Below are positions 36,355 to 41,129 of a stretch of DNA of 50,708 nt, one piece after another. The translations under genes and the position numbers were made by a program. Position 1 is the first letter of the stretch; each line of letters starts with the position of its first letter. Origin of the DNA: a virus (taxonomy: Duplodnaviria; Caudoviricetes). The DNA is taken from positions 1 through 50,708 of the IMG/VR virus record IMGVR_UViG_3300036766_000591; one strand, 5' to 3'. The notes under the pieces were generated by a model. That model saw nothing but the letters and a program-made list of their open reading frames with translations. It did not search any database and was not told the origin of the DNA.

Positions 36355-37281
36355 CTACTCCTGTTCGATCTCGGTGATCTTCGCGCGCAGCGCCGCTGCC
36401 TGCTCGGCGTCGCCCGCCCGCTCGGCCTTCTCGGCATTCTGCCGCAGCGGGGCGGTTAGGGCGGCTGTCGCGGCGCTGCGGTCCACCTTCGTCAAGCGTT
36501 TCTCTCCGCTGCGCGAGGCGGCACCCGCGCGGCGATGCTCCTGGTCCTGCTCGAATGCGTCCAGCACGGCGCCCACGAAGTACCGGAGCGCGCGCGGCTG
36601 GGTGTTGCGCCCGTTAGGCCGGTAGGCACGGGCCTTCTCGGCGATGATGCGTTCGGCGAAGGCGATCGGCACGCCCGCCGCGGTGAGGTCGGCGGCAGCG
36701 GCATGCTGCGCGCTCGTCACCAGCTCGTTGAACTGCCCACCGAGGGCGGCAGCGAGCCCGCGGTTGGCGGCGACGGTACACCGCTGCGCGTAGGAAAGGC
36801 TGTCCGGGGATGGCTGTTGCGGTTCAGCGACAGTACCACCCTGCGGCTCGCGCGCGGCTGTTGCTTCTTCTGTCTCTGTCTCTGGCTTTGTTGAGCCGGG
36901 CTTAAGCCGGGCTTGAGCACTCCTCAAGCCCCCCTTGCGGCCGGATTCAGCGCGCCGCCCAGCCTCAAGTTGTTGGGCCTCCGCGATTTGCAGAAGTTTG
37001 GGATTGGCGAGACGCCCCTCGAGGGTCGGGTGCGGTTTGAAGCAGTCCTTGACCACTCCTCGCAAATCAGCCACTTCGACCGTTCCACCGAGTTCGCCGC
37101 TTGAAGCAAGCCTCAAGGAACGCTCAAGCCGGGCTTGACTCGCCGGGATGCTCCCTTCGAGCCACTGAAGACAGAGGAGCCGGAGGTAGACGCCCTGCTC
37201 GGCGAAGGTCATGGCGAGCACCTTCTCGTCGGTCATCCAGTCGCGGACGTAGAAGGGGAACCAGGCCAGCTTCTCGCTCAT
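36355..37281 (-). CDS. Replication initiator, YdaU/DUF1376-like
   Basis: AWFPFYVRDWM.D...M...EQGVY.RLL..QW..GS.P; KGG; ETETE linker. Confidence 0.82.
   Translation of the reverse strand: MSEKLAWFPFYVRDWMTDEKVLAMTFAEQGVYLRLLCLQWLEGSIPASQARLERSLRLASSGELGGTVEVADLRGVVKDCFKPHPTLEGRLANPKLLQIAEAQQLEAGRRAESGRKGGLRSAQARLKPGSTKPETETEEATAAREPQGGTVAEPQQPSPDSLSYAQRCTVAANRGLAAALGGQFNELVTSAQHAAAADLTAAGVPIAFAERIIAEKARAYRPNGRNTQPRALRYFVGAVLDAFEQDQEHRRAGAASRSGEKRLTKVDRSAATAALTAPLRQNAEKAERAGDAEQAAALRAKITEIEQE
36891..37138. repeat. Iteron-like AGCCGGGCT repeats inside the initiator gene (candidate origin)
   Basis: Copies at 36894 and 36905, and within the near-palindrome TCAAGCCGGGCTTGA (37124-37138). Confidence 0.5.
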
Positions 37282-37517
37282 CGCGCGCCCTTCTTGCGGT
37301 TGCAACGCCGACACAGGATGGCCCAATTCGAGGCGTCGTCTGCCCCGCCGCGGGCAAGTGGAACGACGTGATCCACCTCGGGGAAGTTCGGCTCACTCAG
37401 CGCGGAGCGGCCGCTCTCGGCGGTGACCGACAGCGTGACGCCACACGCAGGGCACTTCCAGCCCGCGGCCTCGATGAGCCGGATCCATGTCCTGTGGTCG
37501 ATGTTCTTCCTTCTCAC
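37278..37517 (-). CDS. HNH endonuclease (79 aa)
   Basis: CPACG...EVDHVVPLARGG.D..SN..ILC..CN.KKG. Confidence 0.88.
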   Translation of the reverse strand: MRRKNIDHRTWIRLIEAAGWKCPACGVTLSVTAESGRSALSEPNFPEVDHVVPLARGGADDASNWAILCRRCNRKKGAR

Positions 37518-37804
37518 GCGGCCGTTCTCCTTCGCGTCTCGATCTTCCCGCGGAGCTCCGGGTAGCGGTCGAGCAGCTCGTCGCTGATGCGCGAGCGGTA
37601 GGAGTTGTCACAGTGGATCTTGAGCGCGCCGCGGGTTTGGGCGACGAGCAGGTTGACCTCTACCCGCTTGGCGCCGCTCCGCGCCAGCGCGATCGCGCGG
37701 ACGGCGACCGCCTCGAAGACCCGCTCGCCCTCGTCGCTGGCGCGCCAGCGCGCATAACGTTGCGACAGCGCGTCGCGGAGCGGGAGCGCGAGCTGCGCGG
37801 TCAC
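37514..37804 (-). CDS. Hypothetical early protein
   Basis: GTGA-coupled; KI..NSY...YPEL...ETR. Confidence 0.6.
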   Translation of the reverse strand: MTAQLALPLRDALSQRYARWRASDEGERVFEAVAVRAIALARSGAKRVEVNLLVAQTRGALKIHCDNSYRSRISDELLDRYPELRGKIETRRRTAA

Positions 37805-39255
37805 GCGGCACCTTCGATCTGGTCGATGGCCGCGAAGATGGCCCACGCCACGGCGGGCACGATGGCGTTTCCGACGAGACGGCATCCCGCCGCGCGGTTG
37901 GGCATCCCGCTCACGACGGGCCAGCGATTCTCGCAGCCGCCACCGAACGCAAAGGCTTCCACGATGTTGTCGCTTTCACGCGACCGGGAATAGTCCAACC
38001 AAGCTTCCATTGCCTGTGGTGCCAGCGCATGTGGCAGGGCCCGCACACGACCTGCAAGTTCTGCCGCGCGCTGTTCGCGGGATCGCCATCCATGTGATGG
38101 ACTTGGAGTCCCGCAGTAGCGGCACAGACTTCGCATTTCTCCAGCCTGCCCACCGTCTGTCGCGCGATGGTCTTCCACCGCCCATAACTGCGTACCGGAC
38201 GGGAATTCGCGCACGAAAGCGAGCAGAACCGCCTCCGCCGAAAGACACCGTAGTCCTCCAGTCGGCCACTGATCCGCTTGCGCGTCATCGGCACACCGCA
38301 CCACTGGCAGGGCTTCAAAGGCGCTGGCTTCACTGGCATGGGCACCTAACGCCGTCCTTTCTTCTGGCGGAGATACACGACATTCAACCAGCCAGCGGGA
38401 AAACCCATCAACCAAGCTCCGAAATTGGGATTGTACGCCGCCCGCTGGCCCGTCGGTTTCGCCGTCGCCGCCGCTAAGCTGAGGTTGTGATTGCCCTTGA
38501 TCCCCTCGAACGCCTTCACCTCGCCCGGCTTCGGCGGGGACGAGCCTAACGGTGCCATCCGCCCCTCGGATGGCAACGGCGTCGGCCCAAGGCGCGAGAA
38601 GTTGACCGATTGTCGGCCCAGCAGCGCATTCTCTAGCACGCCTGCCACACTCGCTCCGTCCTTCCCGTCCCGCGTCGTCGGCGTCGCCCAACCCGCTAGC
38701 GCGTCCTCCAGTTTCCGTATCCCGCCGACCAGCGTCTTCCGCTCTGCCTGGCCACCCCCCGTTGGCGTCTTGGGCGTGGGCCACGATCCAGACCCGTTCC
38801 CGGCGGTGGGGGGCACCAACGTCGGCCGCGGCGACACTGTCCCACGTCGCATCGTACCCGAGGCGGGCCAGGTCTGAGAGAACTTCGCCGAACGCACATC
38901 CGTCGTTGACGGAAAGCAGTCCAGGGACATTCTCGAAAAGGCACCAGCGGGGTCGAAGCTCCCCAACGCATCGGGCGACTGCGGGCCAGAGCCATCGGCT
39001 ATCGCTCGTGCCCAACCGTCGGCCAGCGTGGGAAGCGGGCTGGCAGGGGAAGCCGCCAGCGAGGATGTCGGGTCGCTCAACGCTGCTCCAGTCCACCGTA
39101 GTGAGGTCGCCCACGTTCCGCGCCTCGGGGAAATGATGTGCCATGACCCGACACGCCCACGGCTCGATCTCCGAGTACCATGCCGTCGTCCAGCCTAACT
39201 GACGGGCCGCGAGATCGAAGCCTCCTTGGCCTGCACACAGCGAACCCAGCCTCAC
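37801..39255 (-). CDS. DNA C5-cytosine methyltransferase, alpha polypeptide (motifs I-VIII and X)
   Basis: GSLCAG.GG, GGFPCQP, FENVPG, GAPHRRERVW, GNAIVP; GTG start at 39255. Confidence 0.9.
   Translation of the reverse strand: MRLGSLCAGQGGFDLAARQLGWTTAWYSEIEPWACRVMAHHFPEARNVGDLTTVDWSSVERPDILAGGFPCQPASHAGRRLGTSDSRWLWPAVARCVGELRPRWCLFENVPGLLSVNDGCAFGEVLSDLARLGYDATWDSVAAADVGAPHRRERVWIVAHAQDANGGWPGRAEDAGRRDTETGGRASGLGDADDAGREGRSECGRRARECAAGPTIGQLLAPWADAVAIRGADGTVRLVPAEAGRGEGVRGDQGQSQPQLSGGDGETDGPAGGVQSQFRSLVDGFSRWLVECRVSPPEERTALGAHASEASAFEALPVVRCADDAQADQWPTGGLRCLSAEAVLLAFVREFPSGTQLWAVEDHRATDGGQAGEMRSLCRYCGTPSPSHGWRSREQRAAELAGRVRALPHALAPQAMEAWLDYSRSRESDNIVEAFAFGGGCENRWPVVSGMPNRAAGCRLVGNAIVPAVAWAIFAAIDQIEGAA
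37911..38345 (-). CDS. HNH endonuclease with an N-terminal zinc finger, nested in the +1 frame of the C5 methyltransferase
   Basis: CQWCG...FCSLSCAN; CEVC...QVHHMDGDPANS..NLQVVC..CH..WH. Confidence 0.82.
   Translation of the reverse strand: MPMPVKPAPLKPCQWCGVPMTRKRISGRLEDYGVFRRRRFCSLSCANSRPVRSYGRWKTIARQTVGRLEKCEVCAATAGLQVHHMDGDPANSARQNLQVVCGPCHMRWHHRQWKLGWTIPGRVKATTSWKPLRSVAAARIAGPS
38346..39080 (-). CDS. C5 methyltransferase beta-like polypeptide in the +1 frame (WPTP repeats, motif IX)
   Basis: WPTP/WATP and NPNFGAWLMGFPAGW; TTG start with a GGAG RBS; arrangement as in M.EcoHK31I. Confidence 0.7.
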   Translation of the reverse strand: MSDPTSSLAASPASPLPTLADGWARAIADGSGPQSPDALGSFDPAGAFSRMSLDCFPSTTDVRSAKFSQTWPASGTMRRGTVSPRPTLVPPTAGNGSGSWPTPKTPTGGGQAERKTLVGGIRKLEDALAGWATPTTRDGKDGASVAGVLENALLGRQSVNFSRLGPTPLPSEGRMAPLGSSPPKPGEVKAFEGIKGNHNLSLAAATAKPTGQRAAYNPNFGAWLMGFPAGWLNVVYLRQKKGRR

Positions 39256-39720
39256 CGCGCCCCCGCGCTGGGCCGGAGCGGGCGGGTTACGGCGCAAGCA
39301 GCTCCGCGACTTTGTCCAACAACGCGCCGGCTTCCTCCCGCGCGTGGGTCGGCACCGGCACCAATCCGTCCGCAATGAGCCGGAGGAATCCGGCCACTTG
39401 CATGAGCACGGCTCTCGTCTTCTCGTCCACCGATGTCTCCGGGATTGAGGTGTCGCATCATAGTCCCCCTGCGCTGGGCCGGAAGCCCCTGCGCCGCGCG
39501 CGGCAGTCGGCGCACAGCCCGCAGCGGCAGGCGAACGTGAGCGGCGGGGTGACGTGCTCAGTCCAGCGCGCCACGCGGGGTTCGGGCGCCGTGGGCCACG
39601 CGGGGAGCGGCTTCCCCCACCGCACGGCGTTCCCGCGGGCGGCGCGCGTGCGACCGAGGCACGCCTTCGAGCAGAAGCCGTGCCAGCCGGGGAGCGGGGC
39701 GTTGCCGCAGGGGCAGAGGG

Positions 39721-40122
39721 TCACGCGGCCACCCGTAGCGCCTCGCGCCGCTCCTCGCGCACCAGTTCCCGCTCGTAGCGGTCTACGTGCCGCTGCATCC
39801 ACGGCGTGTGCGGAAAGGCGTACTCCTGATACCACGCGACGCGCCCCTGAATCTGGAGGTGGCAGACCTGACAGAGCGCCGCGAGGTTCCAGAGCCGCAC
39901 CTCCGACTTGTCGCCGTCGAGGTGATGGCACGTCAGGACGCGCATCTTCCCGTCGCCGATGCCGGGATGGGTGCAGTGCTCGTCACACGGCAGATTCCAG
40001 TCGGGTGTGTGCGGCTTCGACGGGTGGTGGCACCGCTCGCAGCGGTAGCCGTTCATGCGGCGCACGCGCTCGGCGATCTGCGGCCAGCGGGCCGGGTACG
40101 CGCCGACGTTCTCGTTCCTCAC
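39721..40122 (-). CDS. HNH-domain protein
   Basis: YP..W..I, RCERC, VLTCHHLDGD.....NL.ALCQ.CHL. Confidence 0.8.
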   Translation of the reverse strand: MRNENVGAYPARWPQIAERVRRMNGYRCERCHHPSKPHTPDWNLPCDEHCTHPGIGDGKMRVLTCHHLDGDKSEVRLWNLAALCQVCHLQIQGRVAWYQEYAFPHTPWMQRHVDRYERELVREERREALRVAA

Positions 40123-40433
40123 GTCCCCGGACCCCGAGAGTCCAGCGCGGGCGGGCGCATGTCCCAGTCGGGCTCCGCGCCCTCGGTCCGGTCGCCGGCG
40201 CGCCTTCCCGCGATCATCGGAGCCAGGGCCTCTGCGAGCGCGCGGGTGGTCCCGGTGGCTGGTAGGACGCGCGAGGCGGCGCGCGCGCTCGCCGTGAAGG
40301 ACAGGCTCGGATCGTACACTTCGCGCAGCCGGTCCATCGTGCGCCGCTTCCCGCCCTCCGACAGCGAGGCGAAGGCGGCGAGGATCTTGCCTTGGGCGAC
40401 CAGCTCCTGGTCGCGGGGGATGCGGGTCATGGC

Positions 40434-41129
40434 TCAGTCCTCGCTTTCGGGTGTCTGCTTCCCCGGGCGCCGCATCGGCATCAGTAGTCCGCGCACCTCG
40501 GCCTCGGCGCCCTTCGCGTGAATGACGATCTGGCGCTCGGCGCCGATGAAGGCGCAGTCCACGCCGAGCATTCCCTTGAGCTTCCCGACGGCGGCGAAGA
40601 GCCGCACGGCGAGCGTCATGCCGTCCACCGCCTCGGCCCTGTCGAGCCCGAACCGCAGGCCGCGCCAGTCTGGAAATGACGACTCGTAGAGGCGGCAATG
40701 CAGCTCTTGCCCGAAGGCGCGGAGCGTCAGAATCTCCGGTTGGAACGCTTCGCCTAACGGCGTGTCCCCCTCGGCGGGCTCCACGGCGAGCGAGAGCGTG
40801 GCGAGCTTGCCCGCGTCATCCCCGGCCGCCGCGAGCAACGTCCGCATGAAGGCGAGCGCGAACTTGTCGGTGTCCATGACGACGACGGCGCGCTCGGGGG
40901 CTTCCGCCGCGTCGGGCATCGGCTGACCGTCGCCCGGCACCCAGGCGCGAAAGAGCATCGTCCCATCGCATCCGACGAACTGCGCGCCCGCCTCGAACAA
41001 TTCGACGCTCAGCGTTCGGTAGAGCGCGGGCCTGGCTTCGTCCTGCGAGGTGGCGAGGAAGGCGTTGAGCCACGCGGTCGCCGCGCGGCCCGCGTTGACG
41101 GTGATGCCGACGATAGTCGGTGCGGTCAT
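40434..41129 (-). CDS. DNA polymerase III beta-clamp-like protein (two-domain)
   Basis: DEARPAL, V.CDG..L, FPDWR, GLLMPMR. Confidence 0.65.
   Translation of the reverse strand: MTAPTIVGITVNAGRAATAWLNAFLATSQDEARPALYRTLSVELFEAGAQFVGCDGTMLFRAWVPGDGQPMPDAAEAPERAVVVMDTDKFALAFMRTLLAAAGDDAGKLATLSLAVEPAEGDTPLGEAFQPEILTLRAFGQELHCRLYESSFPDWRGLRFGLDRAEAVDGMTLAVRLFAAVGKLKGMLGVDCAFIGAERQIVIHAKGAEAEVRGLLMPMRRPGKQTPESED

Follow-up and report, generated by a model that had tools for sequence, protein, structure and literature searches.

A phage cytosine-5 methyltransferase locus probably read in two frames, with a nested HNH endonuclease gene of putative homing type

M.EcoHK31I (E. coli HK31; YGGCCR) is a two-polypeptide cytosine-5 (C5) methyltransferase whose beta chain is encoded wholly inside the alpha gene, in another reading frame. 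In the sections of the published accounts that we consulted, alpha carries motifs I to VIII, the recognition domain and motif X, beta supplies motif IX, and both chains are needed for activity (PMC2836561, PMC3404938). M.AquI (CYCGRG) is a two-subunit C5 methyltransferase split within the variable region, and its beta subunit comprises the distal recognition part with motifs IX and X (PMC3404938). Fragments of monomeric C5 methyltransferases are also reported to complement each other (PMC3404938, PMC2836561). A different peculiarity is the ShiLan domain, an insertion without stops that is found in methylase genes of mycobacteriophages and conceals a gene for an HNH endonuclease in a shifted frame (Arsenault, Gosselin and Gogarten 2025, PMC11855218; studied also by Gosselin et al. 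2023, PMC9957025). Its start is repeat-like, signals of an intron or intein are absent and its distribution is disjunct; the translation of its HNH is discussed as an open question, to which the authors' answer is leaderless initiation (PMC11855218). Here we describe a locus in the virus record IMGVR_UViG_3300036766_000591 that appears to combine both arrangements. The record is complete, with 50,708 bases at 68% guanine plus cytosine (GC), and the whole of it is the window to which our coordinates refer.

Three nested open reading frames (ORFs), which we call alpha, beta and HNH, lie on the minus strand of the window between positions 37801 and 39375. Judged from sequence and by analogy, they probably encode a two-frame, two-polypeptide phage C5 methyltransferase of the M.EcoHK31I kind together with a nested HNH endonuclease of homing type. 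The two-frame methylase and the hidden HNH are each already known, and the novelty is their combination in one locus. Its features are the following.

37801..39255, minus strand: alpha ORF, 484 amino acids from a GTG at 39255; the frame is open up to a TTG at 39375
38782..39240, minus strand: alpha catalytic core, motifs I to VIII, placed from ORF and motif coordinates
38346..39080, minus strand: beta ORF, 244 amino acids from a TTG, in the alpha+1 frame, ending in TAG
38388..38432, minus strand: motif IX, NPNFGAWLMGFPAGW, in the beta frame, placed by motif location
38430-38383, minus strand: degenerate first pre-X copy, SQFRSLVDGFSRWLVE, in the alpha frame, on the same DNA as motif IX
37911..38345, minus strand: HNH endonuclease ORF, 144 amino acids, in the beta frame, its GTG directly after the beta TAG
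37855..37935, minus strand: live pre-X and motif X, CENRWPVVSGMPNRAAGCRLVGNAIVP, in the alpha frame, overlapping the final HNH codons
37801..37914, minus strand: possible separate motif X ORF of 37 codons, its GTG overlapping the HNH stop (GTGA)

About 1.3 kilobases of the locus thus hold three protein-coding readings, with alpha running throughout and beta and then HNH following one another in the shifted frame. Over 37801-39255 the alpha frame contains only its own stop, the +1 frame four stops and the +2 frame 13. A first-pass annotation, made from the letters alone, had described alpha as a frame with motifs I to VIII and X around a long nonsense-like middle, and its coordinates and motifs are borne out: motif I (LCAGQGG) lies at 39240-39220, IV (GFPCQ) at 39054-39040, VI (ENV) at 38937-38920, VIII (HRRERVWIV) at 38808-38782 and X (VGNAIVP) at 37875-37855. 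Alpha matches Pfam PF00145 (DNA_methylase) over the part with motifs I to VIII only (E 4e-41; 142 bits, cutoff 22), the NCBIfam model TIGR00675 (dcm; 123.5 bits, cutoff 100.65) and phrog_363 (E 3.5e-69), whose alignment runs from motif I to the C-terminus and includes motif X. The Pfam profile stops short of motifs IX and X in alpha, in beta-type proteins and in the single-frame methylase Daenerys gp70. The strings GNAIVP and MGFPxGW are kept in relatives; we take them to be motifs X and IX from knowledge of C5-methyltransferase motifs, together with the match to PHROG 363.

Structure prediction agrees with this division of the alpha chain. In the AlphaFold model the predicted local distance difference test (pLDDT) score is mostly above 90 for residues 1-163, below 50 for most of 164-459 and 79-93 for 460-484. 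Foldseek aligns the modelled catalytic domain with M.HhaI (2uz4_A; E 1.2e-15, root-mean-square deviation (rmsd) 1.4 over 164 columns, 33% identity) and also with 1dct_A, so that the predicted fold is like that of M.HhaI or M.HaeIII. Residues 300-450, which are the reading over the HNH, have no homolog at E<=0.001 among 1,151 candidates, and on this ground we rejected them as a genuine domain. The nonsense-like middle is, in the model, a low-confidence and disordered linker of about 300 residues between motif VIII and pre-X. By its motifs I to VIII and its predicted catalytic fold, alpha is a DNA (cytosine-5) methyltransferase, with predicted activity.

The N-terminal part of beta overlaps alpha motifs IV to VIII and is followed by a recognition region with WPTP/WATPT modules, by motif IX and by the TAG. 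The first-pass annotation had assigned WPTP repeats and motif IX to this +1 frame, and we find motif IX there, at 38432-38388. Beta matches phrog_1008 (E 2.6e-22), a 'DNA methyltransferase' family distinct from phrog_363. Pfam gave no match to beta or to beta-type proteins, and a beta profile found no PDB sequence at E<=1. A word-indexed search returned 49 homologous proteins, none with a Pfam domain and most ending just after motif IX. At E<=0.001 the beta profile matches 50,688 representative proteins; this is an upper bound, since some of the profile reflects catalytic motifs of the methylase read in another frame. A GGAG lies 5 nucleotides upstream of the beta TTG. The pattern of substitutions, given below, makes the N-terminal beta strings SPASP and TWPxSGTMRxG shadows of alpha motifs IV and VII; by this sequence criterion no separate selection acts on them as a domain.

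Alpha/beta homologs without the HNH, for which the first-pass annotation had proposed a search, are common among the relatives. Of 26 distinct HNH-less loci, 21 have motif IX in the +1 frame and keep motif X in the frame of the catalytic core. Among viral contigs found through beta, 13 of 17 distinct loci carry motifs I to VIII in one frame, IX in the frame one ahead and X back in the original frame; L008 (L numbers denote individual loci) has IX and X together, and the motif IX pattern was unmatched in three. Contigs found through the alpha N-terminus show the same arrangement of IX and X in eight of nine distinct loci, the ninth contig ending too early. Three-frame prints show both frames open even at low GC (46% in L017 and 57% in L023). 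As a null for open frames we used synonymous recoding of the selected frame, P being the chance that the other frame stays open. Of 20 HNH-less loci, 19 have alpha open across the beta recognition part (per-locus P 0.0005-0.16). Beta, in turn, has no stop across motifs IV to VIII in 32 of 34 loci, the stop-free stretch before the end of this last motif being 97-391 codons long in 32 of 34. In the window, alpha stays open across the beta recognition part (P 0.02) and across the HNH (P 0.03) and meets only its own stop, so the first-pass reading of a frame that continues over both to GNAIVP holds. Such openness exceeds chance, if only modestly when the window is taken by itself.

Substitutions between relatives indicate which frame is meaningful in each stretch. 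We compared differences per codon position in 11 pairs of closely related loci. In the catalytic part they are 0.185, 0.140 and 0.378 at alpha positions 1, 2 and 3. Between motifs VIII and IX, in the recognition part, beta position 3 is highest (0.373 vs 0.282 and 0.284). Over the HNH, whose frame conservation the first-pass annotation had singled out as a check, seven pairs give a peak at HNH position 3 (0.413 vs 0.245 and 0.250), which indicates purifying selection. The peak is back at alpha position 3 in pre-X and X (0.197, 0.170 and 0.408 at positions 1, 2 and 3). The position-3 peaks therefore give the order of meaningful frames as alpha, beta, HNH and alpha again.

Daenerys gp70 (L069, from a Mycobacterium phage) is annotated as a single chain of 543 amino acids with all motifs in one frame. 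At about 1530-2080 of this locus, a +1 ORF of 150 amino acids carries beta-like recognition modules (LPTPRAS, LLPTPRGSAERTSKG), and the annotated frame reads like filler exactly where the +1 ORF carries them. At 450-700 of L017, the alpha frame upstream of motif IV is filler-like, with no motif I found, and the beta frame there carries recognition-like modules (WRTPQANEAG).

The first-pass annotation had also placed a zinc-finger HNH immediately after beta, and this assignment is upheld: the ORF begins in the same frame with a GTG directly behind the beta TAG, and an ATG follows two codons downstream. An N-terminal zinc finger (CQWCG ... GRLEDYGVF ... CSLSCANS) precedes a core of the form CEVC ... 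HH ... N ... CGPCH ... WHH. The best PHROG match is phrog_1271 (E 4.3e-9), and 14 of the 15 further matching PHROGs are named HNH endonuclease. Pfam HNH models score below their cutoffs (HNH_3, 18.1 vs 24.8 bits; HNH, 14.8 vs 21.4). Across 18 sequences of the family, 14 Cys, His, Arg or Glu columns are invariant, and all are intact in the window. The AlphaFold model of the HNH (pLDDT 78.7) has no Foldseek match at E<=0.001. The top VIA-align rows are mostly HNH domains, led by the Cas5-HNH 8yha_A (Z 8.6, 86 aligned residues, rmsd 4.8), with Z near 8 being only moderate by the tool's own note; the HNH of phage GVE2 (5h0m, Z 6.0) and Gme HNH (4h9d, Z 5.8) are further matches.

This HNH family comprises at least 414 protein clusters, and its members recur inside methylase genes of this kind. 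A search with the HNH only led to two viral loci, 11 metagenome loci (9 distinct) and 12 genome loci; the HNH is nested in such a methylase gene in 2/2, 9/9 distinct and 10/12 of these, the exceptions among the genome loci being a spurious match (L066) and an HNH without a methylase (L064). The genome loci are prophages or metagenome-assembled genomes (MAGs) of Burkholderiales, Gemmatimonadaceae, Ralstonia, Nitratireductor, Tianweitania, Acetobacter and others. Among GenBank phages, tblastn with the HNH found Komagataeibacter phages phiKX1 and phiKX2 and Staphylococcus phage CUB-EPI_14, and no mycobacteriophage at E<=1e-3. The ORF that carries motif X spans the HNH in all 20 loci where the X pattern was found. 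The host methylase frame is free of stops over the HNH core in all 22 non-redundant loci (P 0.0005-0.07 each), and the third frame has 0-9 stops per locus. GC in these loci is 35-64%, with 33% for the Staphylococcus phage. The HNH sits between motifs IX and X in most loci and before IX in L048, L053 and L068.

Two of the GenBank phages show different host genes for the HNH. In Staphylococcus phage CUB-EPI_14 (L068), gp45 is annotated as a conventional single-frame DNA-cytosine methyltransferase of 601 amino acids; its frame, at 33% GC, is open across an unannotated +1-frame HNH ORF at 2001-2480 of the locus. Since this host is read in a single frame, nesting of the HNH is independent of the alpha/beta design. 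Komagataeibacter phage phiKX1 (L067) has the same design as the window, alpha and beta plus HNH, at 1100-2510 of its locus. GenBank annotates two 'hypothetical protein' pieces there, and neither a methylase nor an HNH; as an isolated phage, phiKX1 is a possible test system.

The start of the HNH ORF suggests how it may be expressed. A Shine-Dalgarno-like motif lies 4-10 nucleotides upstream of the HNH start in 14 of 18 loci; in the window it is AGGA, followed by 9 nucleotides and the GTG. The beta stop abuts the HNH start in nine of the 18, as in the window, where the TAG lies directly before the GTG. In seven others it lies 3-9 nucleotides before the start and in one 27 nucleotides before; in one it was not found. 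This spacing suggests that translation of the HNH is coupled to the beta stop. In a Nitratireductor soli prophage (L061, 1483-2998), beta and HNH form an uninterrupted ORF of 505 amino acids, with no stop or Met between them. We do not favour a separate motif X mini-ORF, starting at GTG 37914 or at an ATG near 38010, which has no convincing ribosome-binding site by eye; the 37-codon version likewise gave no family match and no Shine-Dalgarno-like motif by eye. We also rejected a group I or II intron: Rfam returned no intron or other RNA family at E<=1 over 37500-39500 (no search for intein motifs was made), and the insert has almost no non-coding room, with only about 30 nucleotides outside the HNH ORF. 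Sequencing error or a phase-variable frameshift at the run of six G after motif VIII was set aside as well, since the same frame switch recurs in dozens of independent contigs.

Compared with the described systems, the window resembles M.EcoHK31I in principle, by sequence features and analogy, and differs in its division of labour. As in M.EcoHK31I, beta lies in another frame inside the alpha gene and both frames are kept open. The recognition region, however, is in alpha in M.EcoHK31I and in beta here, where the middle of alpha is the low-confidence linker. The beta described here is 244 amino acids long and also overlaps catalytic motifs, and the likeness is drawn from the description of M.EcoHK31I rather than its sequence. 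The M.EcoHK31I-like arrangement proposed in the first-pass annotation therefore stands for the overlapping frames, which relatives support, and not for the placement of the recognition region. The sections of the M.EcoHK31I papers that we consulted describe no nested nuclease. In M.AquI, as here, the second subunit carries the recognition part and motif IX; its beta also holds motif X, which in the window is back in the alpha frame, and the consulted part of the source describes no long nested overlap. Of the relatives, Twister gp79/gp78 looks to be of the M.AquI type. Our literature searches, which did not cover subscription journals, brought up no account of an overlapping alpha/beta family in phages beyond M.EcoHK31I and M.AquI.

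The first-pass annotation had considered an added nested nuclease to be no part of the M.EcoHK31I model; the nuclease is less new than it supposed, as the ShiLan domain is a published case of a hidden out-of-frame HNH in a phage methylase (PMC11855218, in the part consulted). In both cases a zinc-finger HNH lies in a shifted frame inside a phage methylase gene whose host frame is free of stops; the insert begins with a stretch similar to what follows the site, and the disjunct distribution suggests homing. The window catalytic core is closest to mycobacteriophage methylases, with 55% identity to Daenerys gp70 (cluster F1). The ShiLan methylase is probably of the same family, as judged by analogy from its description; ShiLan is not among the matches listed for Daenerys gp70 (the best 60 of 577 phage records). 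In contrast to ShiLan, the window HNH belongs to another lineage, as it has no mycobacteriophage tblastn match at the threshold given above. The window host gene, moreover, is read in two frames, with the HNH in the beta frame directly behind the beta stop. The part of PMC11855218 that we consulted does not mention an overlapping beta frame.

The distribution and history of the HNH point to mobility. The first-pass annotation had left the choice between a homing element and a compact modification-nuclease pair; both remain the readings to be compared, and homing is favoured because the HNH is patchily distributed and has a history partly decoupled from that of the methylase, duplications flank it in some loci and one copy is decayed. 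In a tree built from 37 catalytic cores, which left out nine duplicate loci and loci without a detectable core, HNH presence changes 10 times, no better than with shuffled labels (mean 11.5), and well-supported branches force at least three of the changes. Identities of the HNH and of the core correlate weakly (r 0.38 over 78 pairs), with discordance in both directions: L049 and L058 share 0.80 identity in the core and 0.43 in the HNH, and L043 and L046 share 0.29 and 0.54. Of 16 loci compared for a direct repeat of the motif IX/pre-X segment around the HNH, three have a significant one, five a weak or borderline one and eight, the window among them, none; one of the significant repeats, in L042, is 37 nucleotides long (z 7.9).

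Individual loci add to the picture of the family. An Acetobacter MAG (L063, 601-918) holds a decayed HNH, truncated and with HH changed to HQ, still within the methylase gene. A Rhizobiaceae locus (L064, 2486-2944) has an intact HNH of the same family with no surrounding methylase and with stops in the -1 frame. Mycobacterium phage DotProduct (L070) has in its gp64, past motif VI and in the +1 frame, a LAGLIDADG-type ORF (LAYVAGLIDGEG...) that lies at about 690-1140 of the locus; the annotated methylase frame is free of stops through it, and a beta-like nested ORF comes next in the same +1 frame. The methylase family would thus harbour a hidden homing gene from a second class of nuclease, again out of frame. 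We tried GTCGTG hexamers as borders of the window insertion and rejected them, since there are three occurrences, one of them inside the HNH, and conservation of the alpha frame reaches upstream beyond the second of these borders; the repeated hexamer is probably coincidental.

These results are consistent with a locus in which alpha and beta are two polypeptides made from the same DNA in two frames, alpha with motifs I to VIII and X, and beta supplying the target-recognition region and motif IX. We infer that the two would assemble as the chains of M.EcoHK31I and M.AquI do. The HNH may be translated from its own Shine-Dalgarno-like site and by termination-reinitiation from beta. The methylase would be unbroken by the HNH because the latter lies beyond the end of beta and inside the alpha linker; alpha would merely need to stay free of stops across it. 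The overlapped IX/pre-X segment would have been doubled, one copy being kept for each frame. During co-infection, the nuclease could cut HNH-less alleles of such methylase genes and in this way copy itself in.

Several observations weigh against this account. In the first 100 residues of beta, it is alpha position 3, which equals beta position 2, that varies most in relatives; as this stretch shows no selection of its own, the real start of beta is uncertain and a +1 frameshift from alpha to beta possible. Openness of the window beta frame over alpha is non-significant (P 0.24), the window-only values of 0.02 and 0.03 are modest at 68% GC, and the per-locus P values come from related loci and are therefore non-independent. 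Sampling for the tree was biased, in that HNH-bearing loci were retrieved through the HNH. No DNA duplication was detected around the window HNH (score 23 against 20 +/- 3.5 for shuffles in one comparison, z -0.3 in another). The first-pass annotation's doubled pre-X segment thus stands at the protein level, where the window alpha reads a degenerate copy before the HNH and a good copy after it, as in L043 and L055, and not as significant DNA similarity. Because the HNH lies elsewhere in L048, L053 and L068, one homing site cannot explain every copy. Finally, fusion of beta and HNH without a stop, in 2 of 24 loci (L059 and L061), fits a functional partnership.

Such a partnership is the first alternative to homing. 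The HNH could be a working partner of the methylase in a compact modification-nuclease pair, cutting DNA, of the host or of a competing phage, that lacks the cognate 5-methylcytosine or being targeted through the beta recognition region. Purifying selection on the HNH frame, its place directly behind the recognition region and motif IX, the apparent translational coupling, the in-frame fusions in L061 (the 505-residue ORF) and L059 and the size of the family, at least 414 protein clusters, are all consistent with this, and pairings of methylases with nucleases are frequent in phages. The HNH, however, is missing from most methylases of the family, and its presence is scattered on their tree. 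Its history is partly decoupled from that of the methylase, decayed and free-standing copies exist, its position differs between methylases, and duplicated target sequence flanks it in several loci. Scatter, decoupling, decay, varied position and flanking repeats form the pattern of a mobile insertion. On this sequence evidence we favour a homing-type element with reasonable confidence and regard a dedicated nuclease partner as unlikely.

Alternatively, insertion of the HNH could have disabled the methylase, leaving a decaying gene in which alpha is open by chance and motif X, cut off from IX, is unused. The closest catalytic cores (Daenerys gp70, at 55% identity, and Twister) do keep IX and X in one frame, GWLNVV and SGMPNR would be rejoined in a single frame if the 464 nucleotides that separate two GTCGTG hexamers were removed, and at 68% GC long open frames are common, with window-only P values of 0.02-0.03. 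Yet all catalytic motifs, motifs IX and X and the 14 invariant HNH residues are intact, and, with the two stretches taken as independent, alpha would stay open over both with a joint chance of about 6e-4. Read-through in 22 of 22 loci, down to 33% GC, and continued alpha-frame selection on pre-X and X in HNH-bearing relatives argue further against decay, and the third GTCGTG inside the HNH makes the hexamers probably a coincidence; we consider a disabled gene improbable. More improbable still is a single polypeptide produced by recoding, either through a +1 shift after motif VIII, for example at the run of six G near 38757, or through removal of the insert as an intron or intein. The selected frame does switch from alpha to beta just after motif VIII, where this run lies, and the upstream part of beta is not selected as protein. 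Against this, three-frame prints of the relatives, compared by eye only, show no conserved slippery site at the switch. A frameshift would have no need of the 97-391 open beta-frame codons that lie upstream of where motif VIII ends in 32 of 34 loci, and a return shift would also be required to reach motif X. Nor is there an Rfam family at E<=1 over 37500-39500 or more than some 30 nucleotides of insert outside the HNH ORF, and the ShiLan element, in the part of its description consulted, has no intron or intein signals either (PMC11855218).

One could also envision a more speculative extension of the two-frame reading, in which a methylase with two open frames is a permissive landing pad and the HNH is being domesticated from a selfish element into a one-locus module resembling restriction-modification. 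If alpha and beta assemble anyway, downstream motifs would just pass from one chain to the other whenever an indel or insert leaves both frames open. Members of one clade do differ in the frame that carries motifs IX and X (Twister, Daenerys, L048 and the window). The apparent translational coupling of the HNH to beta would be in keeping with domestication. We think this scenario unlikely as a whole; if true, the beta-HNH fusion in prophages L061 and L059 would be a nuclease borne on the methylase's own recognition subunit.

The surroundings of the locus hold further nucleases. A free-standing HNH gene of 79 amino acids lies at 37278-37517 on the minus strand (phrog_1035 and phrog_338, E ~1e-14), and on the same strand a 325-residue ORF at 39721-40698 has a C-terminal HNH domain (phrog_1571, E 4e-11). 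Three HNH nucleases thus lie within 3.5 kilobases of a replication module, in which 36355-37326 looks primosomal or DnaD-like. There are two GTGA stop-start overlaps on the minus strand: at 37911-37914 the HNH stop overlaps an alpha-frame GTG, and at 37801-37804 the alpha stop overlaps a GTG able to start a downstream gene, within the ORF at 37514-37885. At the DNA level, the only similarity of a query of 37600-39500 (minus strand) to GenBank phages is to 75 records, 63 of them Mycobacterium phages, at 60-80% identity. The similarity is concentrated on about 100 nucleotides at motifs VII-VIII, where alpha and beta overlap (query 617-728, about 38773-38884).

If our reading is correct, the locus ties together two published oddities, the two-frame M.EcoHK31I and the hidden HNH of the ShiLan domain. 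It also hints at why such nucleases are drawn to methylase genes: an entire gene can be taken up by a linker whose one requirement is to stay open, and a highly conserved segment coded in two frames would make a good homing target. Coupling to the stop of an overlapping beta is our proposed answer to the question of how a hidden HNH is translated, raised in the consulted part of PMC11855218. Annotation of such loci routinely goes wrong, giving hypothetical pieces, a single long methylase or a pair of methylases, and the beta family is very large (the 50,688 representatives being an upper bound) and has no Pfam model. The main interest of the locus lies in clean frame-by-frame evidence, in the size of the unannotated beta family and in the idea of coupled translation. 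The methylation specificity of these phages would sit in an ORF that most pipelines miss or misname.

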